Below are positions 3,001-58,684 of a DNA stretch of 64,000 nucleotides, one piece after another (within the stretch, counting starts at the first letter, position 1; each line of letters begins with the position of its first letter). Origin of the DNA: Candidatus Omnitrophota bacterium (lineage in GTDB: Bacteria > Omnitrophota > Omnitrophia > Omnitrophales > Aquincolibacteriaceae); the NCBI GenBank assembly GCA_903856085.1, contig CAIOAT010000003.1, forward strand, positions 173 to 64,172. Direction: 5' to 3'. The translations under genes were made by a program, and so were the position numbers. Below the pieces are notes generated by a model. It ran no database searches. It saw only the letters and a program-made list of their open reading frames with translations, and had not been told where the DNA came from.

Positions 3001-4835
3001 TCGCTGTCCTCGGCCTTACGGGAGTTCTCGATATAGCCGCTGGCGCTTGGCATTCTCTCGCTCTAGTTGATGATGGAACAGGGCACAAAACGGGGACTGT
3101 CTCAGCTTGGGGGATTTTTGACGGTACATCACCGGTTATCATAGGGGGACTTTCCAGTGTCACAAGCATTGCGGCCAGTTACATGCACTCGCTGGCCCTT
3201 TTATCCGACGGCACAGTCAAAGCTTGGGGTTATAACACATACGGGGAACTTGGAGACGGAACTACGATCTCTCGGTGGAGCCCCGTGACCGTATCGGGGC
3301 TTTCCAATGTTAAAAGCATTGCGGCCGGCATGGATCATTCCATGGCTATTTTGAACGACGGTACCGTAAAAACTTGGGGACATAATAATTACGGTCAACT
3401 CGGTGACGGTACCACCACGGACCGGTTAACGCCCGTGACTGTCACGGATCTTTCCGGCCTTTCCGTTAAAAGCATTGTGGGTGGAGTTGAATATACCTTA
3501 GCCTGCTTGGAAGATGGCACCGTTAAAAGTTGGGGAGGCAATTGGTACGGTCAATTGGGTGACGGAACGACCGCTACCCAAACCAGACCGGTCACAGACT
3601 CAGCGCTTTCGGGTGTGACGGCTCTCGCGGCCGGAAATGGTTACTCCTTTGGGGTCTCTTCTTCCGATGATGTTAAGGCTTGGGGATTCAACTACTACGG
3701 GGCTCTTGGTATTAATCGAACCTCATTTCAGGAAGTTACCCCCCAGTATGTCGTCACGCTGACGCGAGCCCCTTTTATTAGCGAGGGCACTTTCACAGCG
3801 CAGGATTCCACGTTTACTTATTCAGGGGGCTATGCCTTTGGCCGTGTTGTTACCACGGTGGTGGCCAATGTGGAATACCATGACCTCGTTTTGAAGTACA
3901 CTCTGAATAATTACGTTCTTCCGCTCGTGGACAAAACGTTATTAAACAATCCGTCCGAATCAGATTTTGATCCCTTAGTGACGGGGAAATTGACGTTTTT
4001 GGGTGAACATCAATCGGTGTCTGATATTGATGTAGCGGCTGCGAGGCAGGCGCTTGCGGATAAAGATGCATCAGCCCGAGCGTTTGAGGCGATGATGCAG
4101 GCACACATGGGGGATAGATCTTTGGCGCTTGATTTCTTTTCGCAATTTTTCAGTCCGGATCGGGCGATGAATTTCACGACGGATGTCAGAGTCCAGGAAG
4201 GCGCGGTGTATACGCTGGACGGTTTGAGCGAGATGTCACTTTTGACGCAGGGGGAATCCTTGCGCGTAGCTTTCAAGGAAAAGAAATCGGAATTGACCCG
4301 GATGGAACCAAAAGAACTGGAGACGAAGCCCCTTCAGCCGGTTTCCAACCCTGTGATTGTTACGGGAGATAACCCGTTAGAGCCGAGGGATCTGTTGTCC
4401 GGACAGTCCAAGGCGGCCACGCCTGTAGTGATGCGAGATGATGAAACCGCCGGGCGTTACGGGACATTGAAGAATCCCGGAAAAGACGTGTTTGTAAAAT
4501 GTGCGGGAGGGGAATGGCAGGCCGCGAAGGACGGCATGGTAATTATGCCGGGCGATGTAGTGAAGACCGCCTCAGCTGGTTCCGTGGAAGTGATGCTGGA
4601 TGGCGGTAAGGTCGGGCACGTGGAGGTTAAGGCTGGGAGTTTATTCCGTATCAACAAAGCTGAGACGAATCCCGCGACGGGGGAGAAGACAACGCTTTTG
4701 GAATTAGCCGTCGGGAAATTGATCGCCCATGTCGAAAAACTTCAGGGCAATTCCAAGTTCGAGGTTCGCACTCCGACCGCACTCACCGGCGTCCGTGGCA
4801 CTGTTTTCGAAGTGGTGGTTAAAGAAAAAGCCTAA
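1..4835 (+). CDS. Large secreted protein, 5'-truncated by window edge: TPS/filamentous-haemagglutinin N-terminal domain + ~20 RCC1 (β-propeller) repeats + C-terminal FecR-like domain
   Basis: The frame is open from nt 3 (…IALTTAFVFLWSMCITPVMA|ETIN), which looks like the end of a signal peptide with an AXA cleavage site. The true start is therefore upstream of the window. N-terminal motifs match the FHA/TPS β-helix domain (W..FNV..G.IFNI…LVNGGSASNIFG…NIGSSAMINLSNASLIASTL). A long run of GxN..GQLGDGT…SPV repeats is classical RCC1. The C-terminus (…GDVVKT…GSLFRIN…FEVRTPTALTGVRGTVFEV) is FecR-like. Confidence 0.75.
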   Translation, partial: IALTTAFVFLWSMCITPVMAETINLQGGSVEVNVQDNTTNWNVTGNPVWNMPEFNVAQGSIFNIAGLGAGSSLALLVNGGSASNIFGTMNLSNIAFILQNIAGINIGSSAMINLSNASLIASTLPLNLSMTDFLKENYQFSGQGGFLSNEGHILGGKGDLVALIANAIENKGTIEVPMGTVALAAGKTVTVGISGDGLVSIGVDEATANALGLKDQIKNTGTIQANGGHVILNAKAVDGLFEKAINIAKGSNSVAAVIADDGKIEFVAQGDVTNTGTLQAKRGKIEMDVKGDIETMGNLEAAYFREKAAAFRIGGDYHVDQSFHDNLDNALTYVANANVHGTINDIANIIVNAEVTLTLDADTTFNADSDANGTGAFLMDATATILGSGYNLTFTASETSTFGKISNIGNLTLNAQKDVATYQVRNAVQMNGDLTVNVGATFTGGYDVTVNGGDVTGDGTIDLSGGTFILTGTGNFGGKTNWSFAALRFGDGTTEGITKKNGPNKVTILDGLDIKEKHELQAGTSTWDLSWGGGYLTDVIQITAGTNHALALLASGIVKAWGNNEASQLGDGTTQNRSSPITVPGLSGVKSVAAGGNSSFAIKASDGSVWAWGFGNWGQLGDGTGADHSSPVQIPGLSGVASISANLYHTLALMADGTVKSWGYNGNGQLGDGTNAFIRYSPVTVVGLSGVTAIAAGFFHSLALLSNGTVKAWGDNTYGQLGNGTNTSSSSPVTVDGISTATQIAAGEYHSLALLSGGTVQAWGANNTGQLGDGTNTNRTTPVTVLDLSGVTQIAAGSNFNIARLSDGTLKSWGSNFDGQLGDGTTTARSTPVTVPGISGVIGIATASRGGAFSLALLPNGTVKGWGMNNWGQIGNNSPVSFVTSPKTSVSGLGGIHLTDISQIVAGDGHALALKTDGSRVYAWGDGGSGQLGYGLTDTALTAVEVMNPDGTGPLTGVKKIAAGFYHSLALMFDGTVVSWGRNDRGQLGDGTTSSRLLPVAVLGLTGVLDIAAGAWHSLALVDDGTGHKTGTVSAWGIFDGTSPVIIGGLSSVTSIAASYMHSLALLSDGTVKAWGYNTYGELGDGTTISRWSPVTVSGLSNVKSIAAGMDHSMAILNDGTVKTWGHNNYGQLGDGTTTDRLTPVTVTDLSGLSVKSIVGGVEYTLACLEDGTVKSWGGNWYGQLGDGTTATQTRPVTDSALSGVTALAAGNGYSFGVSSSDDVKAWGFNYYGALGINRTSFQEVTPQYVVTLTRAPFISEGTFTAQDSTFTYSGGYAFGRVVTTVVANVEYHDLVLKYTLNNYVLPLVDKTLLNNPSESDFDPLVTGKLTFLGEHQSVSDIDVAAARQALADKDASARAFEAMMQAHMGDRSLALDFFSQFFSPDRAMNFTTDVRVQEGAVYTLDGLSEMSLLTQGESLRVAFKEKKSELTRMEPKELETKPLQPVSNPVIVTGDNPLEPRDLLSGQSKAATPVVMRDDETAGRYGTLKNPGKDVFVKCAGGEWQAAKDGMVIMPGDVVKTASAGSVEVMLDGGKVGHVEVKAGSLFRINKAETNPATGEKTTLLELAVGKLIAHVEKLQGNSKFEVRTPTALTGVRGTVFEVVVKEKA

Positions 4836-7288: not shown

Positions 7289-7584
7289 TCCTGCATGTGG
7301 GACATGATCTTCCTGTGAAAGAAGTGAGAACTCTGGACTGCGAGTCTCCGGGTTTCACATCGGAAGAGACGCGCATTATCAAGAGCCAGATCCGCAAGAA
7401 TATGGCGGTGATCGATCTTCACATCCGTCGGATCGATCTTTTTGTGAACCATGAACGTCACGCGTCACGCGCGGGCCTGATCGCGCAATTGCACGAACGT
7501 CTTCTTGTTTTGATGGAAGAGAACGATACTTTTCGAAAAGTCTTGTGGAAACAATACCAAAACCTGGGAGAGAATCTAACATGA
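7285..7584 (+). CDS. Hypothetical protein (99 aa), translationally coupled between the REC-like gene and glgC
   Basis: ATG at residue 24 of track ORF 7216..7584, overlapping the upstream stop (ATGA). Its own stop overlaps the glgC ATG. No recognisable domain. Confidence 0.4.
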   Translation: MILHVGHDLPVKEVRTLDCESPGFTSEETRIIKSQIRKNMAVIDLHIRRIDLFVNHERHASRAGLIAQLHERLLVLMEENDTFRKVLWKQYQNLGENLT

Positions 7585-8843
7585 GCCGACGCGTTACGAC
7601 CCTGATCCTTGGCGGTGGACAGGGGAAGAGACTCTTCCCGCTTACGAGTTATCGTTCCAAGCCCGCTGTTCCGATCGGCGGCAAATACCGTCTGGTCGAT
7701 ATTCCGATCTCCAATGCCATCAATTCGGCTCTCCGGCGTATCTTTGTTCTAACGCAGTTTAATTCGGCTTCGCTCCACCGCCATATCCACCGGACTTATC
7801 CGTATGAGGCGTTCACAAAAACGAGCGTGGAACTTCTCGCGGCCGAGCAGACGACTGAGAACACGGACTGGTTCCAGGGGACCGCCGACGCGGTCCGGAA
7901 ATGCATGCCGCATTATCGCGCGGACGCCACGGATGTTTTCCTGATTCTTTCCGGGGATCATCTTTACCGGATGAACTATCGTGAGATCTTGGGGTTCCAT
8001 GAGATGCAACGAGCAGATGTGACAGTTGCAACGGTTCCGGTCCCGGAGCGGCTCGTCAAGGGGTTCGGTGTCATGAAGCTCCAAAGAGATGGTCAGATCA
8101 CCGATTTTCTTGAAAAACCCACCAAGAATGATGATGTGGAATCCTACGCTATGCCCAAACCCCTTTGCGATCTTCATCGTGTGAAGGCCAAGGGCCCTAT
8201 GTATCTCGCATCGATGGGAATCTATGTTTTCAACCGCGATGTGCTTTTGGACGTGCTCTCCGGGAGCGAAAAAGATTTTGGTAGAGAGATTATCCCTAAG
8301 GCAATCAAGAACTACAAGGTCTTTGGCCACGTCTTCACGGGGTATTGGCGCGACATCGGGACGATCGGGAGTTTTTATGAGGCGAGTCTCGAACTCACGA
8401 ACGCGAACCCGCCGTTCAGTTTTCTTTCTCCGGAAGGGCGCATCTTTACCCGCCCCAGGTTCCTGCCGCCTTCCAAGATCCTCGGGACAGAACTGGATCA
8501 TGTCGTGATGTCCGAAGGTTGCATCTTGACGGGCGCTAAGATCCATCAATCGGTTGTGGGGCTGCGTTCGGTCGTAGGGTCAGGGACCGTGGTCCGCAAA
8601 AGTGTTCTGATGGGAAATGACTACTATGAGTGGCCGGACCCGTCTCAAGATTACCGGATCGGGGTTGGCAAGAACTGCGTGATCGAGAATTGCATTATCG
8701 ATAAAAATGTGTCGATCGGAGATGGCGTGAGCATCACGAACGCCAAAGCGATCGATGAGAAGGACGGCGATCATTATTACATCCGCGATGGGATCGTGAT
8801 CATTCCGAAGGGTGTTCACATTCCCTCTGGCACGAAGATCTAG
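7581..8843 (+). CDS. glgC: Glucose-1-phosphate adenylyltransferase
   Basis: MSRRVTTLILGGGQGKRLFPLTSYRSKPAVPIGGKYRLVDIPISNAINS… is the canonical GlgC N-terminus, with a C-terminal left-handed β-helix region. The track ORF starts at 7545; the internal ATG at 7581 fits GlgC family N-termini better. Confidence 0.9.
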   Translation: MSRRVTTLILGGGQGKRLFPLTSYRSKPAVPIGGKYRLVDIPISNAINSALRRIFVLTQFNSASLHRHIHRTYPYEAFTKTSVELLAAEQTTENTDWFQGTADAVRKCMPHYRADATDVFLILSGDHLYRMNYREILGFHEMQRADVTVATVPVPERLVKGFGVMKLQRDGQITDFLEKPTKNDDVESYAMPKPLCDLHRVKAKGPMYLASMGIYVFNRDVLLDVLSGSEKDFGREIIPKAIKNYKVFGHVFTGYWRDIGTIGSFYEASLELTNANPPFSFLSPEGRIFTRPRFLPPSKILGTELDHVVMSEGCILTGAKIHQSVVGLRSVVGSGTVVRKSVLMGNDYYEWPDPSQDYRIGVGKNCVIENCIIDKNVSIGDGVSITNAKAIDEKDGDHYYIRDGIVIIPKGVHIPSGTKI

Positions 8844-10628: not shown

Positions 10629-11342
10629 TCAAAGGGCGGGGCCTAGGATTGTTGCTTTTTTGATGTTGGGGACAGCCCTTGCGAGTGCCAGAAAATCCAC
10701 GCGCTTGGCACCATGGAGTTTCAAAAGACGGGCGGCTTCGTTTGCGGTCGCTCCGGTGGTCAGGACATCGTCCAAAAGAAGAAAAGACCTGTTCCTAGCT
10801 TTCGCGGGGTGCTTGAGTTGGAAGGCGCCATAGACATTGATCGCACGCTCACACTGGCTGAGGAAAGTTTGACTCGGAATGGAGCGATGCTTGATCAAAA
10901 GGGATCTGTCGACAGGAGGCGTAAGCCAAGGTTTCAACATCGTCGCGAGGATCTCCGCCTGATTGAAATGTCTTTTCATGAGTTTAAGTCTATCGATAGG
11001 GATGGGAAGGATCGCGTTGTACCCGAAATCGGAAGTGACAGCTTGCGCAATCTCAAGGGCGTGTTTTTGACAGGCCTTGAAAAGATAATCTTTGCGTGCG
11101 TACTTGACGCCGCGCAGCAGCTCCCTGACTGGGGACCTGTAGGCATAAACGGTCCAGACATTGTCCAGGTGTTCAAAACGTTCGTCGACCAGGGCTTCTT
11201 CCATGGGCCAGGCAAGGGCGTCGAGATTCCCGGTGCAGCGCCGACAAAGGATTGTCTCCTCAAGGTCGAGATTGGCGCGGCACACTTCGCATGCTGCAGG
11301 ATAGAAAAGGCGGATAAAGGCTTCTTTGTAGTGATGAAGCAT
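10629..11342 (-). CDS. comFC: ComF family protein (ComFC-like phosphoribosyltransferase with N-terminal double zinc ribbon)
   Basis: CEVCRANL…CRRC zinc ribbons plus the PRTase motif LLLDDVLTTGATANEAARLL. Confidence 0.75.
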   Translation of the reverse strand: MLHHYKEAFIRLFYPAACEVCRANLDLEETILCRRCTGNLDALAWPMEEALVDERFEHLDNVWTVYAYRSPVRELLRGVKYARKDYLFKACQKHALEIAQAVTSDFGYNAILPIPIDRLKLMKRHFNQAEILATMLKPWLTPPVDRSLLIKHRSIPSQTFLSQCERAINVYGAFQLKHPAKARNRSFLLLDDVLTTGATANEAARLLKLHGAKRVDFLALARAVPNIKKATILGPAL

Positions 11343-49296: not shown

Positions 49297-49458
49297 ACGA
49301 AGGATATGAGATCAAACGGCGGGAAAAATCACGGGGATTATAGCGGGTCTTCAGCCTACCGACAAGAATTCTTCTCGAAGAAACGAATTTGAAATGGCGT
49401 AGCTTTCTATTTCCTCGCAAGTAGTCTAAAGCAGGCAACAGACGTCAGGATGAATTGC

Positions 49459-49698
49459 ATGAAGATTGGTAAAGAAGAACTGCTCGAAAAGTTGAAGAAG
49501 GCGTATGAAATGGAGGAGGTCATGGCGAATCTTTTGACCGCCTTGGCTATGCCGCATGTTTTTACCAGTAAAATCCACGAACAGGACAGGCAAAAGGTCC
49601 ACAAAATGCTCGCGATCATTCACGCGGATACTCTCAAACATAAAAAAATCGTGTCCGGAATGATGAAAAATCTTTCAGGGGGATCCTTTGGAGGTTAG
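49459..49698 (+). CDS. Small helical protein, 'A-type' domain (79 aa); paralogous to the N-terminal domain of the PilZ protein at 57305
   Basis: MKIGKEELLEKLKKAYEMEEVMANLL…IIHADTLKHKK… Two predicted helices. Aligns with MFTKEDYDKYFEQIARVERKMIYGV…DDEVRHYGYVLKML at 57305. AGGA lies 8 nt before the ATG at 49459. Confidence 0.5.
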   Translation: MKIGKEELLEKLKKAYEMEEVMANLLTALAMPHVFTSKIHEQDRQKVHKMLAIIHADTLKHKKIVSGMMKNLSGGSFGG

Positions 49699-51199
49699 TT
49701 TGCTGCTCGAGCAGCTGCGCCAATTAAAAGTTGCGGACCAGAACGCGCTGGATATTTACACCGGCCTGCAGTCTAAGGTTGAGGATAAAAAGATTCTCCT
49801 GTCATTGCAGCAACTTGTCCGCGATGAGTTGAAACATGTGGCGATGGAAAAAGAAATCCTGGCTATTCTCAAACAAGAGCAGCGGGTCTTTTTCTGGGGA
49901 GGAAAGAAAGAGGCGGAGGAATTCAAAGGGCTCTTTTCCAGGGCCAGCATCTATTTTACAGCGGGTAGTAAAAAAGAGCTTTTTCCCGGGACGCGGGACG
50001 GGAGGCCTTTTGATCTTGTGGTCTTGGACCTGGATAGTGAAGGGCACGTGAGCAATCCCAAGGCTGTCGCAGGTCTTGTTGGAAAGATCAGGAAAGCTCA
50101 CAAAAAGGTTGTGATTCTTTCATGTCGCAGGGACTTTAAATTGATCCGTGCGGCTTTCGAGGCCGGAACAAGCGACTACATTCTCAAACCCTTTAATCAG
50201 CGCGAGCTCAGCGCGAGGATCCTCGCCATTCTCGAGGGTAAAAAAAGAATCTGCTGTCTCGGAGGCGGAACCGGCCTTTTCACTCTGTTGAGCGCTCTTA
50301 AGACGCTTCCTGATATTCTCTTGATCTCACTTGTGAATATGAGCGATGACGGAGGATCCTCAGGACGGCTTCGGTCGTCGTTCGGGATTCTTCCCCCTGG
50401 CGATATCCGGCGTAGTCTTGTTGCGCTTTCGAACGCTCCTGAGGTCATGAATGAGTTGATTCGCTATCGATTCGATCGTGGGGGGGAGCTCCGTGACCAT
50501 TCACTCGGGAATCTTCTCCTGACGGGTCTTGCCGGGATGAAGGGGTCTATGGCCGAAGCGGTTCGAGCGATGGGGGATATCCTGAACATCCAGGGGATCG
50601 TGCTCCCGATCACTCAAACCATGACAGAGTTTGTCGCCCGTTTTGAAAATGGAAAAGTAATCCGCGGAGAAAGTCGGATCAGTCTTTGTGCGGGAAGAGA
50701 CCCGGCTCTGAAGATCCGCAAAGTATGGCACGAACCTCACGCTGAATGCGATGCAAGCTCCTACGCATCGATCCTTCATGCAGATGTTGTTATCATCGGT
50801 CCAGGGGACCTTTTTACGAGCGTGATCACGAACCTGGTGATCAGGAAGGTCAGCGAGGCGATTTCTCTTTCGCGGGCAAAAAAGATCTATATCTGTAATC
50901 TCATGACGCGGCCGGGCGAGACCTCAGGTCTTGATGCACGGGCGCATGTCAAAAGGGTCGTCGATGTGCTGGGAAGAGACCGCCTGAATTATGTCCTTGT
51001 TTCAAATACCCGGTTCTCCAAAGCCGCGATCGCGCGTTATGCAAAGCTAGACCAGCATCCGGTTTTGATAAATGAAAAAGAGGGGCTAGCGGGAATCACA
51101 AAGGCTAAGGAAATTCTTGCCGATATTGCCGACCAAAAGGAATTGGTCCGCCACGATCTTCAGAAGCTTCGTAATCAGCTTCTCCTGCTTCTTTCTTGA
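49688..51199 (+). CDS. Three-domain protein: N-terminal 'B-type' helical ExxH domain + atypical receiver (REC) + YvcK/GlmR/CofD-family (UPF0052) domain
   Basis: TTG start after GGGGGA. The N-terminus (M)EVSLLLEQLRQLKVADQNALDIYTGLQSK…VRDELKHVAMEKEIL is homologous to the small protein at 57079. REC-like FDLVVLDLD…ILSC…ILKPF lacks the N-terminal acidic pair. The YvcK domain has the hallmark CLGGGTGLFTLL…MSDDGGSSGRLR…PPGDIRRSLVALS. Confidence 0.7.
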   Translation: MEVSLLLEQLRQLKVADQNALDIYTGLQSKVEDKKILLSLQQLVRDELKHVAMEKEILAILKQEQRVFFWGGKKEAEEFKGLFSRASIYFTAGSKKELFPGTRDGRPFDLVVLDLDSEGHVSNPKAVAGLVGKIRKAHKKVVILSCRRDFKLIRAAFEAGTSDYILKPFNQRELSARILAILEGKKRICCLGGGTGLFTLLSALKTLPDILLISLVNMSDDGGSSGRLRSSFGILPPGDIRRSLVALSNAPEVMNELIRYRFDRGGELRDHSLGNLLLTGLAGMKGSMAEAVRAMGDILNIQGIVLPITQTMTEFVARFENGKVIRGESRISLCAGRDPALKIRKVWHEPHAECDASSYASILHADVVIIGPGDLFTSVITNLVIRKVSEAISLSRAKKIYICNLMTRPGETSGLDARAHVKRVVDVLGRDRLNYVLVSNTRFSKAAIARYAKLDQHPVLINEKEGLAGITKAKEILADIADQKELVRHDLQKLRNQLLLLLS

Positions 51200-51232: not shown

Positions 51233-51904
51233 TTAGAGACACATCCGGTCATTGATATTGCGCAGGACGCGCAATCCCCTAAAACCTTCCGCATAGTGGA
51301 CCCGGCCCTGGACCCCTCTGAATGTTGCGTAGGCTCTGGCAATCTCCGTAATTTTCAGATTCTCGATGCTCGTTTTCTCAATTTGTGAGGCGTGTAATTC
51401 GAGCAGTTTGATCTTTTCAGGGAGGATGTCGGTGATATCAACGAAGATGTCAGGGATGAAATCCAGGCAACTAGGGGATTCATAAAAAAGGACCTCCTTG
51501 ACGTTGCGTGTTGCGGCGATCGTTGCGCGAGAGGCTGCGCGGTGGTCCTGATGGCTGTCATCAAAATGGTTGATCAAGACAATGTCTGGAGATACCGCCG
51601 TGACCGCGCCCTCGATCGTTCTTATGAGGTTCCTATCGTCATGCAATTCAGTATCGTGGTAGCCGCCCCAAATAATCTTTTTGACGCCAAGAGCTGCTGC
51701 GGCTCCTTCTTGTTCCAGTTTACGCGTTGCCGGATCTCCACCGACACATCCGTCGGTCAGGATTAACTGGTAGATCTGATTTCCCGCTTGTCCGTATCTT
51801 ACGAGAGTTCCGCCGCAGCCAAATTCAATATCATCCGGATGTGGACCGATCGCGAGAATATTCATGCCGGTTTTTTTTGGGGATAGCTCATGGTGTGATT
51901 CCAC
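51233..51904 (-). CDS. PIG-L/LmbE-family N-acetylglucosaminyl deacetylase
   Basis: AIGPHPDDIEFGCGGTL…HQDH… is a zinc-deacetylase signature. Cytoplasmic, with no signal peptide. GTG start in the track; an alternative ATG (MNIL…) is at 51865. Divergent from the EPS operon. Confidence 0.75.
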   Translation of the reverse strand: MESHHELSPKKTGMNILAIGPHPDDIEFGCGGTLVRYGQAGNQIYQLILTDGCVGGDPATRKLEQEGAAAALGVKKIIWGGYHDTELHDDRNLIRTIEGAVTAVSPDIVLINHFDDSHQDHRAASRATIAATRNVKEVLFYESPSCLDFIPDIFVDITDILPEKIKLLELHASQIEKTSIENLKITEIARAYATFRGVQGRVHYAEGFRGLRVLRNINDRMCL

Positions 51905-52077
51905 AGCGGGGTCCTCCGTTTGCGAGTGACAATAAAAGACAGCGCAGGATTATAGCATTAGCGTGTATAAGTTTTTAATCAAAAAAACAGCCATCGTTTA
52001 AGGTGCGCTTGTGTATAATGCAACATTCACATTTGACGGGTGTTTTGCCGTTCAACTATCGGGTAACGAAAACCCCT

Positions 52078-52683
52078 ATGAAGAAGGTCTTTTTTGGAGC
52101 GATGCTGGTTTTGATAGCGGCCGCCACGACGGGTGTTTATTACCTCACCCAAAAAGCCGACATCTACTACTACAAAGGGCATGATCTTTTCGTCAAGGCA
52201 AAGTATAAAGCCGCTGTTCAGCCCTTCCTTCAGTCCCTCTCAGAGGATCCGAAACGTTCCAAAACGCTAACGGAGCTCGGGTATTCTTACCTCTGGGCCG
52301 GAGATTATCCGGAGGCCATCCAAGTGTTCCAGAAACTGGTCGCACTTGAACCCGGAGCTTTTCGGGTGAAAAAATCATTGGCCAGCGCTTACTCCTGGAA
52401 TAAAGAATATGCGAAGGCCGAGGCGATTTTCCGGGAGGTTATTCGCGGAGACAAGAACGACCGGGATGCCCAAAAGGGATTGGCCGAGATTTATATTTGG
52501 GACAATCAATTTGACAAGGCAAAAGAGATCTTAACGGCCTTGCTCAAAAGCAATGCCGGGGACGCCCAGGCGAAGTTCCTTTACGGAAAAGCGCTGCTTT
52601 ATTCCGGGCACACGAAAGAAGCCCTCAAGATTTTCGAGGAGCTCTCAGGTGGTTCAAAACCCATCGCAAGGAAAACTCCATGA
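52078..52683 (+). CDS. TPR-repeat protein with N-terminal membrane anchor or signal peptide (first gene of EPS operon)
   Basis: MKKVFFGAMLVLIAAATTGVYYL, then about 4 TPR units. Its stop overlaps the next start (ATGA). Confidence 0.6.
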   Translation: MKKVFFGAMLVLIAAATTGVYYLTQKADIYYYKGHDLFVKAKYKAAVQPFLQSLSEDPKRSKTLTELGYSYLWAGDYPEAIQVFQKLVALEPGAFRVKKSLASAYSWNKEYAKAEAIFREVIRGDKNDRDAQKGLAEIYIWDNQFDKAKEILTALLKSNAGDAQAKFLYGKALLYSGHTKEALKIFEELSGGSKPIARKTP

Positions 52684-54602
52684 AAAAAATTCTCCTCGGT
52701 ATCGTCGGTCTCATGATCGTGAGCGGCCCCTTATTTGCGGAAGGCGGGGTGAGCCAGAAAGAGTTGAAGGAATTGATGGGTGACAGCTACATGATCGAGC
52801 AGGATTATGATAGCTCCGTCAAACAGTACAGGGAAGTTCTCGCCAAGGATCCGCAGAATGTAAAGGCCAGGGTGTCGCTCGCGGACGTGTTGAGTTGGCA
52901 GCAAAAATACGAGGAGGCTGTCACGGAATATCTGCAAGCTCTGAAATACCAGGAGACTTCGGAAGAGGCCCTTGAAGTCAAAAAGAAACTGGCGGGTGTT
53001 TATGTCTGGAAGAAAGACTATCTTAAAGCCGAAGCCCTGTATCAGGAACTGATAGCGCAGAATCCGGGCAATTCAAAAGACGCGGTTGCGCTTGCGGAAG
53101 TCTTTTTGCGTCTTGGAAAACCGGAAGCATCCAAGCAATTGTTGCAAGGCGTTTTGGAGAAAGATCCTCAAAATAGGGATGCCAAAATTCTTCTGGGGGA
53201 TGTCTACGCAGAGAACGAAGATTTTAAGAAAGCCCTGGAGCTTTTCCGGGAAGTTCTTGATGCAAAATACGATCGCAAGGTCAAAGCGAAAGTTGGGGAT
53301 GTGCTGAGTTGGACCCGGCACTACCGCGAAGCGCTGAAGATCTACGATGAACTTTTGGTCGAGAAGGATGACAAGGCGTTAAGGATTCAAAAGGCCCGGA
53401 TCCTCGGTTGGGAAAAGGAGTATGGCCGTTCGAGGAAAGAATACCAGGAGATTCTGAGGAGGGGGCCTGATGAGCTTGTGAAAGAGGAAATGGACGCCAA
53501 GGAATTCTACTGGAGAAACAGGGTCAAACGCGCGATCACGGCGTATAAGAAACTGATCAGCAAGGCTCCGGAAAATGCGGAAGCGATGTTTGACCTTAGC
53601 CAGATCTATTCTTACCAGGCCATGTGGCATGAGGCGATCGATCAATACAAGAAACTTCTCGGTGTTTTTGAGGAGCATTCCAGGGCCAAAGAAGGATTGC
53701 AGAAGGCGGAGTTGTTTTTGAGTCACCCCATGCTTACCTCCGGGTATGAATTCTTTAAGGCCCACAGCGGCGCTCGTGGGGTCGATATCCATAAAAATGT
53801 TTTTACAAGCTTGCTCGACATCCCGCTTAATGCGCAGACAGTTTTGGGATTGGGATACAACCTCACCCGGCGGTCCTTTTTGGATTTTCATGATCTGACC
53901 GAGAACCATGCTCGCGTGGCGCTCAGTTATCAGAAAAGTCCCGACTGGTCGACGGGCGCTTTTTTAAATCTGATCACTTACAATCGGAGTGTGGCCCCCG
54001 TCTACGAGTTCGGTGGACAGTTTGCGGTCAGGACCTTTGATGTCGGACAGCTGACGCTTTCGCAGGAACAGCAGCGGCTTGAGAACAACAGCACCGTGAT
54101 CCGTCGCAGGCTCTTTCAGGATAATTTTAAGGTTCGGCAGGACATTGACCTCACAAAACGGTGGAAGGCGGGTACCGATTACACTTTCTCTTATTTCTCT
54201 GACCACAATCGATGCAGCGAAGTGGCGGCGGATACTCTGTATTACTTCTCCCTCGAACCGAGAGCGTTTTATGTGAAATACCGTTATGCCTTCCGCAATT
54301 TCCGGAAGATCGAAACGGACTACTTTTCGCCGCAGGAATATTCCCTCCACACGCTCTCACTGCGGTGGAAACATTTCCTCAATAAAGAGGAGATCTTTTT
54401 TGGCGCGAACGATCTTTATTATGAAGCCGGCTATGACATTTCGTTCGATTCCCAGGGCATTACCAGCCATCAGATCATGGGCGGGCTTACTTGGGATATC
54501 ACCAAGCGTCTTCAGATCAAAGGCGAAGGGCAGTATACGATCGCATCGACAAAGATCTACGAGGACGCAGGGGCCAAGGCCTCTGTAAAATACTTCTTCT
54601 AA
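52680..54602 (+). CDS. Outer-membrane polysaccharide export protein: N-terminal TPR array + C-terminal β-barrel (BcsC/PgaA/PelB/NfrA-like architecture)
   Basis: Signal peptide MKKILLGIVGLMIVSGPLFA, then about 330 aa of TPRs and a ~300 aa C-terminal region with alternating β-strand character. It ends …ASVKYFF, the aromatic C-terminal OMP signature. Confidence 0.6.
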   Translation: MKKILLGIVGLMIVSGPLFAEGGVSQKELKELMGDSYMIEQDYDSSVKQYREVLAKDPQNVKARVSLADVLSWQQKYEEAVTEYLQALKYQETSEEALEVKKKLAGVYVWKKDYLKAEALYQELIAQNPGNSKDAVALAEVFLRLGKPEASKQLLQGVLEKDPQNRDAKILLGDVYAENEDFKKALELFREVLDAKYDRKVKAKVGDVLSWTRHYREALKIYDELLVEKDDKALRIQKARILGWEKEYGRSRKEYQEILRRGPDELVKEEMDAKEFYWRNRVKRAITAYKKLISKAPENAEAMFDLSQIYSYQAMWHEAIDQYKKLLGVFEEHSRAKEGLQKAELFLSHPMLTSGYEFFKAHSGARGVDIHKNVFTSLLDIPLNAQTVLGLGYNLTRRSFLDFHDLTENHARVALSYQKSPDWSTGAFLNLITYNRSVAPVYEFGGQFAVRTFDVGQLTLSQEQQRLENNSTVIRRRLFQDNFKVRQDIDLTKRWKAGTDYTFSYFSDHNRCSEVAADTLYYFSLEPRAFYVKYRYAFRNFRKIETDYFSPQEYSLHTLSLRWKHFLNKEEIFFGANDLYYEAGYDISFDSQGITSHQIMGGLTWDITKRLQIKGEGQYTIASTKIYEDAGAKASVKYFF

Positions 54603-56147
54603 ATGAAAAACAAACAAGAACCGCAATCCAGTATTGTGCTTGAGACGCTCGGGGTTCTCGCGATCCTGGCGGCGATGACGTATTTAATTGTTCGCGGAGT
54701 TCTGCTTGAGCGCGCTAAATACTCCGTAGTGGACGGTATTTTTGCGATCCTTATCCTTTTGGCAGAAGCTTTTATCCTCTTCCATGGCATCGGTTATGCG
54801 GTCGCGATCCTCTGGAGTAAGAAGAAAGCTCGTAGCCTATCGGTTATCTCCCAGGGCATCCCTCCGCTCGCGGAACAGAATCAGCCCTCTGTTGCGATCC
54901 TCATTCCCGCCCGCCACGAACCCAAAGAGGTTCTTGAAAAGACCTTTATCACGGTCGACAACATCGAGTATAAGAACAAGCGGGTTTATTTCCTGGATGA
55001 CAGTATCAAAGAGGAATATCACAAAGAAGCCGAAGAGCTTGCGCGGGAGTATCACCTGACGCTTTTTCGTCGCACCAAGCCATGGCATGGCGCGAAGGCC
55101 GGGATCATTAATGATTTCCTGGAACAAATGACGGAAAAGTACGTGGTGATCTTTGATGCGGACAGTAACCCGATGCCTGATTTCCTCGGGCCACTTGTTC
55201 CGATCATGGAAGCGAACGTGAAACTGGGGTTTGTCCAAACGCCGCAATTTTATACGAATATTGAAGACAGCCGGATCGCGCGGGCGGCGGTACTTCAGCA
55301 GGCAGTTTTTTACGAGTACATCTGCGACGGGAAGGGGATCGTGGATTCGATGTTTTGTTGCGGGACCAACGTGATCTTGCGGGCCAGCGCCCTCAAGGCT
55401 ATCGGAGGGATGGATGAAAGGACGGTGACGGAGGATTTCGCGACCTCTCTCAAGCTTCACACACACGGTTTTTCTTCGCTTTATTACAATCACGTTTGTG
55501 TTTTTGGAATGGGTCCTGAGGATCTGATCGGTTATTTTACGCAGCAGTTCCGTTGGACCGCGGGGACCCTCCAGGTCTTGAGAAGTCTTGTCGCCCAGTT
55601 CTTCACAAAACCTTTTTCGCTCAGCCCAGGGCAATGGTTCCAGTATTTTCTCTCCGGCACTTACTATCTGGTGGGATTTGCGTACTTCATATTGATCCTG
55701 GGGCCTCTTCTTTACATTTTCTTCAGGGTGCCGTCTTTTTTTATCCGACCCGAAGTCTATTTTCTTTTCTTCCTCCCTTACATGTTGTTGTCGACGAGCG
55801 TTTTTTATTTTTCATTACAAAAAAGAAATTATAAACCTCGCGATCTTATGCTCGGGCAGCTTCTGGGGGCATCGAGTTGTTTCGTTTACATGAAAGCCGC
55901 GTTGGCGGCCCTTTTGGGCTTCAAGATTTCATTCGGGGTGACTTCGAAGGCCAAGGGAGGATCGGTATCTCTTCGCGTGATTTGGCCGCAGCTCGCAGTG
56001 ATGGCGGCAACTTTTATCGCGCTGGTGTGGGCCGTGAATCGCTTTGTTTATGAACATGAACCGGCGTTGCTCATCAATGGTTTTTGGACCTTTTACCAGT
56101 TTCTTATCTTTTCCAGCATTTTTTATTTTAACCAAGGATCAAAGTGA
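54603..56147 (+). CDS. Processive family-2 glycosyltransferase, polysaccharide synthase (cellulose-synthase/PgaC-like, no PilZ domain)
   Basis: N-terminal TM helices. Motifs DDS, DADSNP (DxD), TEDF (TED) and QQFRWTAGTL (QxxRW). C-terminal TM helices. Start is adjacent to the upstream stop. Confidence 0.8.
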   Translation: MKNKQEPQSSIVLETLGVLAILAAMTYLIVRGVLLERAKYSVVDGIFAILILLAEAFILFHGIGYAVAILWSKKKARSLSVISQGIPPLAEQNQPSVAILIPARHEPKEVLEKTFITVDNIEYKNKRVYFLDDSIKEEYHKEAEELAREYHLTLFRRTKPWHGAKAGIINDFLEQMTEKYVVIFDADSNPMPDFLGPLVPIMEANVKLGFVQTPQFYTNIEDSRIARAAVLQQAVFYEYICDGKGIVDSMFCCGTNVILRASALKAIGGMDERTVTEDFATSLKLHTHGFSSLYYNHVCVFGMGPEDLIGYFTQQFRWTAGTLQVLRSLVAQFFTKPFSLSPGQWFQYFLSGTYYLVGFAYFILILGPLLYIFFRVPSFFIRPEVYFLFFLPYMLLSTSVFYFSLQKRNYKPRDLMLGQLLGASSCFVYMKAALAALLGFKISFGVTSKAKGGSVSLRVIWPQLAVMAATFIALVWAVNRFVYEHEPALLINGFWTFYQFLIFSSIFYFNQGSK

Positions 56148-57079
56148 AAAGAGCAGCCCCTATTATTTTAGCGTTGGGAGCGTGCGTGCTGTTCGGCTCT
56201 TGTGACGGGCAAAAGGAAAAAGGGTGCTTGACCGGGGCCTTTCTGGCGGATATGCCCAAGGCTGCTTTGATCGAAAAGTTCGCGGTCGATTATGGCAAAC
56301 GGCCGGCTTTCGTACTGATTTTTTTAGATTGGGGAAAGTTTCCAGACGAAACCGTGGTCCGCGATGTCTATGCCAGTGGAAGCATTTTGATGGTGACCTG
56401 GGAACCCTGGCGTGCAGTCCAGAAGGTCGCAATTGATTATGGCGCTCTGCTCAGCGGCAGGGATGACGCGTATATCCGTGACTTTGCGCTGAGGCTGAAA
56501 GCGGTCGGGAAGCCTGTTTTTTTAAGGTTCGCGCATGAGATGAACGGGGACTGGTATCCCTGGTCCGGCCGGAAGCTCGGAAAAGAAACTTATATTGGGA
56601 TGTTCCGGCATATCCGTAAAGTGTTTGACGAAGCCGGTGCCCGCAATGTTCGCTGGGTATTTTCGATCAATGCGGAGAATGTTCCGCCGGAAAATACCTA
56701 TGCCGATTGTTATCCGGGCGACCGTTATGTGGATTATATCGGGCTGGATGGATATAATTGGGGTGCTACCCAGGCATGGAGCCGATGGAGGAGTTTTGAG
56801 GATGTCTTTTCCGGCGTTTATGAAGAGACCGTCCGGCGTTACAAAAAGCCGGTAATTCTTTCGGAATTCAGTTCGTCCTCGGTCGGGGGAGATAAGGTTC
56901 GCTGGATCGATGAGGCGCTTCAAGAAATAAGAAAAATGCCCGCGGTGAAAGGTTTTATTCTTTTTAACATCGACAAAGAGACGGATTGGCGGTTTCCGCC
57001 GGATGCGGCAAGCGGCCAAGAATTAAAGACAGGCCTCAGGAATGCTTATTTTAAGGAAGCCCGAGAAGAGGAGCTTTAA
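56144..57079 (+). CDS. Secreted clan GH-A glycoside hydrolase, family 26-like (β-mannanase-like)
   Basis: Signal peptide or lipobox-like MKRAAPIILALGACVLFGSC. FAHEMNGDWYPW (HEMN acid/base motif of GH26) and …PVILSEFSS (nucleophile Glu region). GTGA overlap with the GT2 stop. Confidence 0.65.
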   Translation: MKRAAPIILALGACVLFGSCDGQKEKGCLTGAFLADMPKAALIEKFAVDYGKRPAFVLIFLDWGKFPDETVVRDVYASGSILMVTWEPWRAVQKVAIDYGALLSGRDDAYIRDFALRLKAVGKPVFLRFAHEMNGDWYPWSGRKLGKETYIGMFRHIRKVFDEAGARNVRWVFSINAENVPPENTYADCYPGDRYVDYIGLDGYNWGATQAWSRWRSFEDVFSGVYEETVRRYKKPVILSEFSSSSVGGDKVRWIDEALQEIRKMPAVKGFILFNIDKETDWRFPPDAASGQELKTGLRNAYFKEAREEEL

Positions 57080-57315
57080 TGACCAAAGACGAACTTATCG
57101 CCCGATTAAACCAACTTCATAACGAAGAAGAACTGGCGATCCCGATCTACACCAAGCATCTGGAGAGCACTTTTTTTCTTTCCCGCATCAAGCCCGAGGC
57201 CAAGAAAGAGATCCAAGAGATGCTTTTGACTTTGGCTATGGAATCGGAAGTGCACGCCCGGATGTTTGATGCCACCATTAAGAAAGTGCAGGAGTCAAAG
57301 CGCGATGTTTACTAA
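57079..57315 (+). CDS. Small helical protein, 'B-type' ExxH domain (78 aa); paralogous to the N-terminus of the REC-YvcK protein
   Basis: MTKDELIARLNQLHNEEELAIPIYTKHLES…EIQEMLLTLAMESEVHARMF aligns with LLLEQLRQLKVADQNALDIYTGLQSK…LVRDELKHVAMEKEIL at 49688. ATG overlaps the upstream stop (TAATG). Confidence 0.5.
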   Translation: MTKDELIARLNQLHNEEELAIPIYTKHLESTFFLSRIKPEAKKEIQEMLLTLAMESEVHARMFDATIKKVQESKRDVY

Positions 57316-57784
57316 AGAAGACTACGATAAATATTTTGAGCAGATCGCGCGTGTGGAGAGAAAAATGATCTACGGGGTTTATGACCTTGGCCGCGAAATC
57401 GATGATCCTTTGATTACGAATGTTTTAAAAAAGATCGGGGATGATGAGGTGCGGCACTATGGTTATGTCCTGAAGATGCTTAAGGCGACCGAAGCGGCAG
57501 GGCAGCTCGAGAATCGCCGTGAGGTCCGGGAGCATTATCTTGGCACAGTTCGTTTGTGGCGTTCTCAGGATCCGTCGCGAGCCGAGATCAGTGCTCGTTG
57601 TGTAAATCTATCAAAGATCGGGATTTGCCTGGAATGCGCAGAGAATCTTTCGTCCTCTGGAGTTTGGGATATCGAGATCCGCTTATTTGATAAAGAAAAA
57701 GTGATCGTTTGTCAGGGGCGGGTCGTTTGGAGCAAAGAGGTGGAGCCGGATTTCCATATCAGCGGAATTGAATTCAATGCGTGA
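57305..57784 (+). CDS. PilZ-domain c-di-GMP receptor with N-terminal 'A-type' helical domain
   Basis: C-terminal PilZ motifs: RREVR (RxxxR), then 28 aa later NLSKIG (D/NxSxxG), then …GRVVWSKE…GIEF. The N-terminal 70 aa are paralogous to 49459..49698. The ATG at 57305 overlaps the previous stop. Confidence 0.7.
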   Translation: MFTKEDYDKYFEQIARVERKMIYGVYDLGREIDDPLITNVLKKIGDDEVRHYGYVLKMLKATEAAGQLENRREVREHYLGTVRLWRSQDPSRAEISARCVNLSKIGICLECAENLSSSGVWDIEIRLFDKEKVIVCQGRVVWSKEVEPDFHISGIEFNA

Positions 57785-57862: not shown

Positions 57863-58315
57863 ATGAGAAAAAATAAGAGCATTCGATTCATGCAGGAAGC
57901 AATCCATGAGGCCCGGAAGGGGCTAAGGGAAGGGGGTATCCCCATCGGATCGGTGCTCGTTAAAGACGGAAAGATCATTGGCCGTGGGCATAACCGCAGG
58001 ATCCAAAAAGGCTCAGCCATTCTTCATGCGGAAATGGATTGCCTGGAAAATGCCGGTCGCCTCAAGGCCAAGGATTATCAGAAGTGCGTGATCTATTCGA
58101 CGCTTTCGCCGTGCGACATGTGCACCGGGGCCATTCTCCTTTATAAGATTCCCGTTGTAGTCATTGGGGAGAACAAGACCTTCAAAGGCCCCGAGGTTCA
58201 TTCCAAGAAGCGCGGCGTGAAATTGATCAATCTAAACCTTCTTGAATGCAAAAAAATGATGAAGGATTTCATCGCGGCCAAGCCCAAACTCTGGAATGAA
58301 GATATCGGAGAATAA
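57863..58315 (+). CDS. Cytosine deaminase, CDA-fold (yeast Fcy1-like)
   Basis: HAEMDC…TLSPCDMCTGAILLYKIPVVVIGEN…ECKKMMKDFIAAKPKLWNEDIGE. Zinc ligands H/C/C and a C-terminal tail closely resemble my recollection of S. cerevisiae Fcy1. Confidence 0.65.
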   Translation: MRKNKSIRFMQEAIHEARKGLREGGIPIGSVLVKDGKIIGRGHNRRIQKGSAILHAEMDCLENAGRLKAKDYQKCVIYSTLSPCDMCTGAILLYKIPVVVIGENKTFKGPEVHSKKRGVKLINLNLLECKKMMKDFIAAKPKLWNEDIGE

Positions 58316-58321
58316 CGTTCT

Positions 58322-58684
58322 ATGTTTATCCGTCAACTCAAAGATTGTCCGGAATTCGTTGCGGGGGATGCCTGCCATCTCCGCGAACTTCTGAACGCCA
58401 AGACCGATAAGCGTGCTTACCGCTATAGTTTGGCTCACGCCATTGTGAGGCCTGGCATCAAGACAAAACCTCATTCTTTGAAGACGTCGGAAGTTTATTA
58501 CATCCTCGAAGGGCAAGGGCGCATGCATGTGGATCATGAGACCGCAGAAGTGGGTCTCGGGGCTGTGATCGATATTCCTCCGCACTCAGCTCAATGGATT
58601 GAAAATATTGGTAAAGTTGATCTTGCTTTTCTCTGCATCGTTGATCCCGCTTGGTGTGCGGCGGATGAGAAAGTTTTAAAATGA
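58322..58684 (+). CDS. Cupin-domain protein
   Basis: β-barrel region with the conserved cupin His/Glu pattern (…SEVYYILEGQGRMHVDHE…IENIGK…). Confidence 0.5.
   Translation: MFIRQLKDCPEFVAGDACHLRELLNAKTDKRAYRYSLAHAIVRPGIKTKPHSLKTSEVYYILEGQGRMHVDHETAEVGLGAVIDIPPHSAQWIENIGKVDLAFLCIVDPAWCAADEKVLK

Follow-up and report, generated by a model that had tools for sequence, protein, structure and literature searches.

Which polymer does a bacterial locus secrete when it follows the overall logic of the Bcs, Pga and Pel systems with a different set of parts? The question is raised by a gene cassette in a 64-kb stretch of Candidatus Omnitrophota DNA (contig CAIOAT010000003.1; the whole stretch is called the window, and all coordinates are given on it). 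The cassette consists of six genes, for a small tetratricopeptide repeat (TPR) protein, a TPR protein ending in a porin, a GT2 synthase, a GH26 hydrolase, a 78-aa helical protein and a PilZ protein, and a PIG-L gene is transcribed divergently beside it. Known forms of synthase-dependent polysaccharide secretion handle cellulose, poly-N-acetylglucosamine (PNAG), Pel and alginate, and there is also the efflux-like Bgs route. The initial annotation took the cassette for a synthase-dependent exopolysaccharide system, and the TPR/barrel export protein, processive GT2, GH26 and PilZ all support this. We consider it very probable that the cassette is a real, conserved operon for synthase-dependent polysaccharide secretion, with the function of every part inferred. 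We favour, with fair confidence, the reading that the locus secretes an extracellular beta-glucan, most probably one with mixed beta-1,3/1,4 linkages, and is conserved in Candidatus Omnitrophota. Taken separately, a beta-glucan product of some kind is likely, and a specifically mixed-linkage product is close to evenly balanced.

The strongest clue to the polymer is the hydrolase. It passes the GH26 family profile PF02156 (52.8 bits, cut-off 20.2) and conserves the catalytic glutamate pair of strands 4 and 7 (E132 and E241), which bears out the earlier call of a secreted GH26-like hydrolase in place of GH8 or GH114. Its match to PDB 2bv9, the GH26 module of C. thermocellum CelH (CtLic26A), reaches E 3e-64, versus 7e-10 for the best GH26 mannanase and 5e-5 for a beta-1,3-xylanase. 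BLASTP gives 44% identity to CtLic26A over 269 columns, spanning the whole catalytic domain, with the acid/base E132 and nucleophile E241 aligned to E109 and E222. Across 14 Omnitrophota orthologues and CtLic26A, 52 columns are invariant, among them H131, E132, E241 and many aromatic residues. GH26 has no described beta-1,3/1,4-glucanase other than CtLic26A (PMC10470212), and hydrolysis of beta-1,3/1,4-glucan by the window enzyme is predicted from its proximity to this lichenase. CtLic26A is a module of a secreted cellulosomal feeding enzyme, whereas the window's enzyme is a single-domain protein in a biosynthetic operon, and it is probably a periplasmic lipoprotein because orthologue N-termini end in a lipobox-like SC or AC. 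Relative loci (L001-L026) were fetched and the window proteins compared with them by tblastn; GH26 stays with the synthase in every examined locus that reaches far enough, even in rearranged ones. To our knowledge, every well-studied synthase-dependent system co-encodes a hydrolase that cuts its own product (BcsZ, PgaB, PelA, AlgL), and by this rule the product would be a glucan that a lichenase-type enzyme can cut.

The synthase is cellulose-synthase-like. It matches Pfam GT2 families, the CelA model TIGR03030 at E 1e-63 (215.2 bits, below the cut-off of 699.1) and PRK11498 at 139.8 bits (cut-off 992), and matches to the PgaC/IcaA model (1.6e-19; ~1e-8 against PgaC by tblastn), NodC (1e-7) and MdoH are much weaker than that to CelA. 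In the PDB it aligns with BcsA (4hg6/5ej1) at E 1e-33 over residues 88-472. The motifs D132, D185-A-D187, T276-E-D278, Q314-Q-F-R-W318 and the gating-loop F444-G-V-T-S-K449 are invariant or nearly so in 114 Omnitrophota homologues. Two N-terminal and at least four C-terminal hydrophobic segments were found, and the protein ends at residue 514, right after the last hydrophobic stretch, leaving no cytoplasmic C-terminal tail. The polytopic, processive GT2 with DxD, TED and QxxRW and no fused PilZ that had been described at first sight is therefore confirmed, and the protein is predicted to combine polymerase and translocation channel. Related synthases of 606-618 aa carry a C-terminal PilZ-like tail lacking both RxxxR and [D/N]xSxxG (Pfam E 0.02). 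BcsA has four N-terminal helices and BgsA two or three (PMC6821405). S. meliloti BgsA (664 aa) was recovered from pSymB, where its neighbours are genes for a membrane-fusion protein and a diguanylate cyclase; it shares 29% identity with the window synthase (pairwise E 2e-39), and the alignment ends at window residue 457. Mixed-linkage glucan is a known product of BcsA-like GT2 enzymes in S. meliloti and Romboutsia (PMC5567048, PMC10374906).

Residues associated with linkage add a further hint. Positions that set beta-1,4-forming bacterial synthases apart from beta-1,3-forming ones have been compiled in a computational study (PMC6821405), and we mapped these by reading the alignment of the synthase to BcsA. 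At the positions of RsBcsA His276 and Asn298 the window enzyme has Gln215 and Gln233, as CrdS and BgsA have Gln at both; at Leu309 it has Lys244, shared with CrdS, where BgsA has Arg; and at Tyr302 it keeps tyrosine (Tyr237), where both CrdS and BgsA have Phe. All four window residues are invariant in the 114 homologues. Three of the four positions are thus of CrdS/BgsA type, which is suggestive only.

The divergent PIG-L gene bears on whether the polymer contains amino sugars. Its product scores 88.4 bits against PF02585 (cut-off 28.2; E 7e-25) and has the metal-site motifs H22-P-D-D and H118-Q-D-H, which place it in the PIG-L/LmbE family; no hydrophobic segment or leader was found. The nearest solved relatives are archaeal diacetylchitobiose deacetylases (E 5e-21). 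A role in making a bacillithiol-like thiol was considered and rejected, as the protein scores 101 bits against BshB1 (cut-off 182.5) and 54 against BshB2 (cut-off 195) and lies nearer the diacetylchitobiose deacetylases. The gene is adjacent and divergent in L002, L003, L006, L008 and L025; in L007 it lies within the operon on the same strand, separated from the flanking porin and synthase genes by 14 and 10 nt. It is absent beside the cassette in L004, L020, L021, L024 and L026, and for this reason we regard it as an accessory gene at best, not a core part. A divergent, leaderless PIG-L gene is accordingly present as first annotated, but its membership in the system is inconsistent.

These data allow the candidate polymers to be weighed. 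A beta-glucan with 1,3 links is likelier than a mannan or N-acetyl-hexosamine polymer because the hydrolase lies near CtLic26A and the synthase is cellulose-synthase-like. The earlier proposal of a beta-mannan, glucomannan or N-acetyl-hexosamine polymer, with PIG-L as its deacetylase, is not supported and now appears improbable. It could draw on the fact that most characterised GH26 enzymes are mannanases, on PIG-L being a neighbour of the cassette in five relatives and part of the operon in L007, and on the activity of PIG-L's nearest solved relatives, which deacetylate N-acetylglucosamine (GlcNAc) oligomers. However, GH26 mannanases (7e-10 or worse) fall far behind the lichenase, PgaC/IcaA and NodC are far weaker synthase matches than cellulose synthase, and five loci have no PIG-L next to the cassette. 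Lacking a signal peptide, the enzyme would have no access to a polymer exported during synthesis, and in L007 an upstream PgaC-like GT2 (E 1e-28, below cut-off) may be its true partner. Cellulose, a pure beta-1,4-glucan on which GH26 would do BcsZ's job, is unlikely, although several observations speak for it: TIGR03030 is the best synthase profile and BcsA the best solved relative, the porin is BcsC-like, and Tyr237 corresponds to BcsA Tyr302. The authors of the Romboutsia study also state that such models cannot separate cellulose from mixed-linkage synthases (PMC10374906). Against cellulose stand a TIGR03030 score far under the equivalog cut-off, the absence of BcsB, GH8 and a fused canonical PilZ from every locus inspected, a co-encoded hydrolase nearest a lichenase, and the three CrdS/BgsA-type positions. 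CtLic26A, moreover, reportedly needs a beta-1,3 link at subsites -2/-1 (Taylor et al. 2005).

The same enzyme is said to cleave a beta-1,4 bond, which bears on a pure beta-1,3-glucan resembling curdlan. Such a product would agree with Gln215, Gln233 and Lys244, the residues of curdlan synthase CrdS, and with two N-terminal helices where BcsA has four; yet the hydrolase is nearest a beta-1,3/1,4-glucanase, Tyr237 is BcsA-like and CrdA/CrdC-type partners were not seen, and we hold this product to be improbable. It is very improbable that GH26 serves to feed on plant or lichen glucans and only happens to lie beside an unrelated synthase. CtLic26A does belong to a plant-cell-wall-degrading cellulosome enzyme, but the window gene overlaps the synthase stop codon by 4 nt, accompanies the synthase in all examined loci of sufficient extent, encodes a lipoprotein-type leader instead of dockerin or binding modules, and has no sugar-uptake genes beside it. 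Several points nevertheless weigh against a mixed-linkage beta-glucan. The specificity of the GH26 enzyme is carried over from a single characterised relative that shares 44% identity. The synthase is roughly equally far from BcsA (E 1e-33) and BgsA (E 2e-39), so that phylogeny does not decide the product. Among the linkage positions Y237 is BcsA-like, and the list itself comes from a computational study; two further positions distinguishing BcsA from CrdS in the membrane helices (Asn412/Trp417) correspond to Leu350/Tyr355, which match neither enzyme, and were left unused because the alignment there is unreliable. PIG-L, if a member of the system, fits a GlcNAc-containing substrate better than a plain glucan.

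Export of the favoured beta-glucan would run through the TPR proteins. The porin protein (640 aa) has a signal-peptide-like N-terminus and many TPR matches and ends in KYFF. Its AlphaFold2 model, built with 20 sequences (mean predicted local distance difference test score, pLDDT, 85.3), places about 20 helices at residues 26-348 and 16 strands at 351-639. Foldseek against the PDB retrieved TPR proteins and, over the barrel, BcsC (9b8a, 9b8h, 6tzk), PelB (9h80_M) and PgaA (4y25), which are the outer-membrane channels for cellulose, Pel and PNAG, the last superposing with a TM-score of 0.78 on the target and a root-mean-square deviation of 4.0 Å. The model and fold matches uphold the TPR protein with a C-terminal beta-barrel like those of BcsC, PgaA and PelB that had been suggested. 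A sequence search of the PDB with the barrel region (341-640) was empty and the last 300 residues have no Pfam family, so the barrel is deduced from model and fold search, and the likeness to a BcsC-type TPR protein with a 16-stranded barrel is one of fold, not of sequence. A word-based homologue search with the barrel returned 19 relatives, all from Omnitrophota where the source names the organism. As modelled, the protein would form a polysaccharide export channel. PgaA and PelB share the succession of TPR domain and 16-stranded barrel; the window barrel has no detectable sequence similarity to theirs, and its partner synthase and hydrolase come from other families. The small TPR protein matches TPR families (e.g., TPR_19, E 4e-20) and has orthologues of 195-201 aa; a single hydrophobic segment at residues 29-47 of the long open reading frame (ORF) suggests that it is probably anchored in the inner membrane and faces the periplasm. 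The two TPR genes of the window are the split form of one gene, as they are fused with the porin in L007 (817 aa) and L021 (1304 aa).

Control of the synthase is likely exerted in trans by the PilZ protein. The protein passes PF07238 (28.6-28.9 bits, cut-off 22.5), and nine orthologues as well as an alignment of 37 sequences keep the motifs R71-x-x-x-R75 and N101-x-S103-x-x-G106. A stand-alone PilZ had been annotated; that assignment stands, and by its profile match and both motifs for binding cyclic di-GMP (c-di-GMP) the domain is canonical. The AlphaFold2 model (pLDDT 86.4) has helices at 4-31 and 35-61, a flexible linker holding RxxxR and a barrel at 80-157; its fold matches PilZ domains, the best in the PDB being that of BcsA (5ej1, 4p00, 4hg6). 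The protein is thus a candidate c-di-GMP receptor. Trans-acting control is suggested because the synthase has the gating-loop motif but no regulatory tail. The BcsA Glu371 salt bridge was also tried as a sign of PilZ autoinhibition and dropped, because only 61 of the 92 short homologues and 18 of the 22 long ones keep the corresponding Glu306. One observation counts against c-di-GMP control: a GG[DE]EF diguanylate cyclase motif occurs in no ORF of the window, leaving the source of c-di-GMP unseen.

The 78-aa protein and the helical hairpin that precedes the PilZ domain had been listed as a small helical protein and a "novel A-type domain". The two are connected: joined together, they match ferritin-like and rubrerythrin profiles end to end. 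Alone, the 78-aa protein has just a weak Rubrerythrin match (E 0.005). Its family comprises 58 clusters among 1.84 billion proteins, all but one of them 72-87 aa and stand-alone, and it lies in or beside every cassette that could be read through that region. The PilZ hairpin, which on its own shows weak matches to EncB and encapsulated ferritins, occurs as a separate 62-64-aa protein in L021, L024 and L025; where the synthase has a C-terminal extension, this separate protein starts MFTK(D/E)D. The two hairpins thus travel as a pair while PilZ switches partners. An artificial fusion made in silico from the window's 78-aa protein and PilZ hairpin scored 28.8 bits against Pfam Rubrerythrin (cut-off 22.8; positions 20-135 of 137) and that of the L020 pair 31.4 bits against Ferritin_2 (cut-off 24.7); the joined L022 pair matched neither. 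A profile of nine pairs gave weak PDB matches (E 0.1-1) solely to di-iron or designed di-metal bundles, and one stronger match (E 3e-10) to a designed repeat that shares the DEVRH helix. What these results show is that the hairpins are conserved together and have a ferritin-like profile. Putative ligands are E18 on helix A (with Y24 and H27) and [E/D]55-S-x-x-H59 on helix B, all largely conserved in the 78-aa protein, and E18' on helix C and E48'-x-x-H51' on helix D of the PilZ hairpin, where E18 and D47-E48-x-x-H51-Y52 are invariant or nearly so. This candidate set of four carboxylates and two histidines is near-canonical. Rubrerythrins and encapsulin half-ferritins likewise have Glu on helices A and C and Glu/His pairs on B and D; the proposed window bundle differs in being split over two genes, with one half fused to PilZ.

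From this pattern we infer that the two hairpins could form one bundle and bind metal. A role of such a split ferritin-like bundle as a metal or redox sensor is doubtful on present evidence, and it is a tentative idea at most that a di-metal (di-iron-type) bundle responds to oxygen, peroxide or iron and acts as a gate on the trans-acting PilZ, so that secretion needs both c-di-GMP and a redox or metal signal. Three observations count against a bundle of this kind: the ferritin-like match requires artificial fusion, each half alone staying below threshold; helix B has E-x-x-x-H spacing and not the canonical E-x-x-H; and pairs from loci with a synthase-fused PilZ-like domain have lost most putative ligands. 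If the sensing scheme were true, an anaerobic Omnitrophota cell would secrete mixed-linkage beta-glucan solely when both signals are present. The window's PilZ protein, joined to what would be one half of such a bundle, offers a testable example of a candidate c-di-GMP receptor in which two inputs may meet.

Upstream of the cassette, at 49450-51199 (+), the window holds the two-gene helical module a second time. Its first gene encodes an 82-aa protein that matches the 78-aa family profile at E 7e-10. The second, overlapping by 11 nt, encodes a helical N-terminus, a receiver-like domain (26.1 bits, cut-off 30.2) and a YvcK/CofD-type UDP-GlcNAc-binding domain (E 5e-85). Apart from self matches, the PilZ-hairpin profile finds this helical N-terminus best (E 0.37). 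L003 and L008 also have this pair; L002, L006 and L025 do not. The same sensor-like pair seems to be wired to two different outputs. Under the tentative sensing scheme, the copy at 49450-51199 would couple the same type of sensor to a YvcK-type UDP-sugar-binding protein, and the pair would then be a reusable, previously undescribed two-gene sensor module.

Taken together, the parts suggest the following working. The GT2 in the inner membrane would polymerise UDP-glucose and push the chain through its own channel, BcsB not being encoded. In the periplasm two TPR scaffolds, an inner-membrane-anchored one and another attached to the porin, would pass the chain on, and it would leave through the 16-stranded outer-membrane barrel. 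The GH26 lipoprotein, whose catalytic residues are conserved and whose substrate is predicted from its nearest characterised relative, would cut the same polymer in the periplasm to clear or trim chains, like BcsZ, PelA and PgaB. The PilZ protein, with both c-di-GMP-binding motifs, would control the synthase in trans. Its hairpin (helices C and D) and the 78-aa protein (helices A and B) would assemble into a ferritin-like four-helix bundle, which might dock PilZ onto the synthase or add a metal, oxygen or redox input.

The cassette recurs widely in the phylum. The synthase has more than 1000 relatives, and the closest named ones are all Candidatus Omnitrophota metagenome-assembled genomes. The order TPR, TPR-porin, GT2, GH26, 78-aa protein, PilZ is the same in L002, L003, L004 and L008 (75-88% synthase identity), in L020 (57%; complete genome CP070655.1) and in L026 (64%), and recurrence of the full cassette in these six loci indicates that the arrangement is not due to chance. 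In all, the cassette was found in 10 further Omnitrophota loci, with synthase identity as low as 54%, and five additional loci are truncated or variant. L001 and L005 show the downstream part, with the upstream end cut, and L006, L024 and L025 have the cassette with variations, extra genes lying between synthase and GH26 in L006. L021 and L022 have the order 1304-aa TPR-porin, 610-aa synthase, 79-aa and 62-aa proteins, receiver, Hpt protein and GH26. In L024 the order is porin, synthase, GH26 and three small proteins, with PilZ absent; the third of these (10952-11188, 78 aa), which follows the helical pair, has no family match and no similarity to the hairpins. L025 encodes a 618-aa synthase, a first small-protein pair, a receiver, GH26 and a second pair whose second member carries PilZ. 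Rearranged loci still group porin, GT2, GH26 and small helical proteins, and the last are as constant across loci as the synthase.

Two regulatory sets occur together in L025 (8001-12427) and in L006 (8659-13085), close relatives of the window with 76% synthase identity. One comprises a long synthase with a PilZ-like tail, 79-aa and 64-aa proteins and a receiver; the other, after GH26, comprises a 78-aa protein and a hairpin-PilZ protein, and the window appears to have kept only this second set. L007 (4429-11685; 56% synthase identity) is headed by a second, PgaC/IcaA-like GT2 (467 aa, QRNRW motif), followed by the fused TPR-porin, the same-strand PIG-L, a 613-aa synthase whose tail is PilZ-like but degenerate, and genes for a 79-aa helical protein and a receiver. 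GH26 was not found in the remaining 1.5 kb of this locus, which may represent a variant that makes two polymers or one containing GlcNAc. Outside Omnitrophota, the nearest relatives of the synthase in the genome collection (L010-L016) are archaeal, with 38% identity in Bathyarchaeota and about 30% in Methanoculleus; GH26, the helical pair and PilZ were undetected near them by tblastn.

Compared with known systems, the locus is closest in its logic to Bcs without being one. In both, the processive GT2 carries D,D,D,QxxRW, FxVTxK and an FFCGS-like motif, a TPR protein has a 16-stranded porin at its end, and the operon encodes a periplasmic endo-glucanase (predicted in the window); the window PilZ receptor is closest in fold to the BcsA PilZ domain. 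Unlike Bcs, the window cassette and the inspected related loci lack BcsB, the synthase has two N-terminal membrane helices and not four, PilZ is separate and fused to a helical hairpin instead of forming the synthase C-terminus, the hydrolase is a lichenase-type GH26 and not the GH8 enzyme BcsZ, and the TPR/porin protein is split into two genes. As BcsB, GH8 and a fused PilZ are absent and the synthase reaches 215 bits against a CelA cut-off of 699, the locus is not a Bcs system by membership. With rhizobial Bgs (BgsBA plus TolC; PMC5567048, PMC13438883) it shares a GT2 with few N-terminal helices, the same FCCG variant of the FFCGS motif, Gln at the BcsA His276 and Asn298 positions, a basic residue at Leu309, the lack of a fused PilZ and an expected control by c-di-GMP. 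In BgsA, however, some 140 residues at the C-terminus form a tail that binds c-di-GMP, whereas the window synthase is tailless; BgsBA exports via a membrane-fusion protein and TolC, whereas the window would use a BcsC/PgaA-type TPR-porin; and bgsBA has no hydrolase gene. The BgsA-type tail is absent, and so is an adaptor-type gene from the cassette (one precedes bgsA on pSymB). With no c-di-GMP-binding tail, no membrane-fusion partner and a different export route, the locus is not a Bgs system either.

In the literature searched, with most subscription journals outside its scope, the arrangement was found undescribed (Omnitrophota cellulose synthase or exopolysaccharide, BcsA with GH26, PilZ with rubrerythrin). 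The locus adds a phylum-wide combination of a BcsA/BgsA-like synthase without BcsB, BcsC/PgaA-type porin export and a co-encoded lichenase-type GH26. If the product is mixed-linkage, it would be the first such polymer tied to a porin-type export route, and the hydrolase would be only the second characterised GH26 lichenase. The locus would also open a way into the surface biology of Omnitrophota, a phylum without cultured members whose cells are believed to rely on others.

Genes were called from an ORF listing, in which all seven ORFs are present, one on the minus strand (51233-51904) and six on the plus strand within 52003-57784 (Table 1).

Table 1. Genes of the polysaccharide secretion locus and the adjoining PIG-L gene in the 64-kb window
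Product	Coordinates	Strand	Basis or remark
Cytoplasmic PIG-L/LmbE-family (CE14-type) deacetylase	51233..51904	-	divergent from cassette
Small TPR protein	52078..52683	+	mechanical ORF start 52003
TPR solenoid with C-terminal 16-stranded outer-membrane beta-barrel	52680..54602	+	model, fold search
Processive GT2 synthase, BcsA/BgsA/CrdS type	54603..56147	+	profiles, motifs
GH26 hydrolase, lichenase (CtLic26A) type	56144..57079	+	PF02156, PDB 2bv9
Cytoplasmic 78-aa helical-hairpin protein	57079..57315	+	family profile
Helical hairpin and PilZ protein	57305..57784	+	PF07238

The six cassette genes had been described as translationally coupled through ATGA, GTGA or TAATG overlaps. Read in the sequence, this is true of the junctions at 52680 (ATGA), 56144 (GTGA) and 57079 (TAATG); at 54602/54603, however, TAA is followed at once by ATG, and the genes are merely adjacent. 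The PilZ gene most likely starts at ATG 57305 and not at TTG 57266, because an AGGAG lies 11 nt upstream and an identical 159-aa product is on record (P0140, the same sequence on 25 public contigs); with this start the gene overlaps the preceding one by 11 nt (57305-57315). The most likely start of the first TPR gene is ATG 52078, which gives 201 aa as in orthologues. Scans for promoters and terminators found no more sites than in shuffled sequence, so the operon boundaries are drawn from gene spacing and synteny. The G+C content is flat at about 0.50 across the region, and the rest of the window holds housekeeping genes (aminoacyl-tRNA synthetases, UvrA, PPDK, DXS and a GlgC-like enzyme), so the region is not a genomic island.

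Downstream of the PilZ gene, 57863-58684 (+) holds a cytidine/dCMP-deaminase-family gene and a gene for a 120-aa cupin, the latter with a weak match to the mannose-6-phosphate isomerase C-terminal domain (E 0.002). Deaminase and cupin keep this position after PilZ in L001, L002, L003, L006, L008 and L025, and in L026 the cupin directly follows PilZ. Among the window ORFs scanned, no UDP-glucose pyrophosphorylase was noticed; the GlgC-like glucose-1-phosphate nucleotidyltransferase (NTP_transferase plus GlgC beta-helix) lies at 7455-8843 (+). At the start of the window, a huge ORF (3-4835, +) runs off the edge and encodes more than 1610 aa; RCC1 repeats are numerous in it (RCC1-like domain, E 3.5e-161), and a FecR domain lies at its C-terminus.

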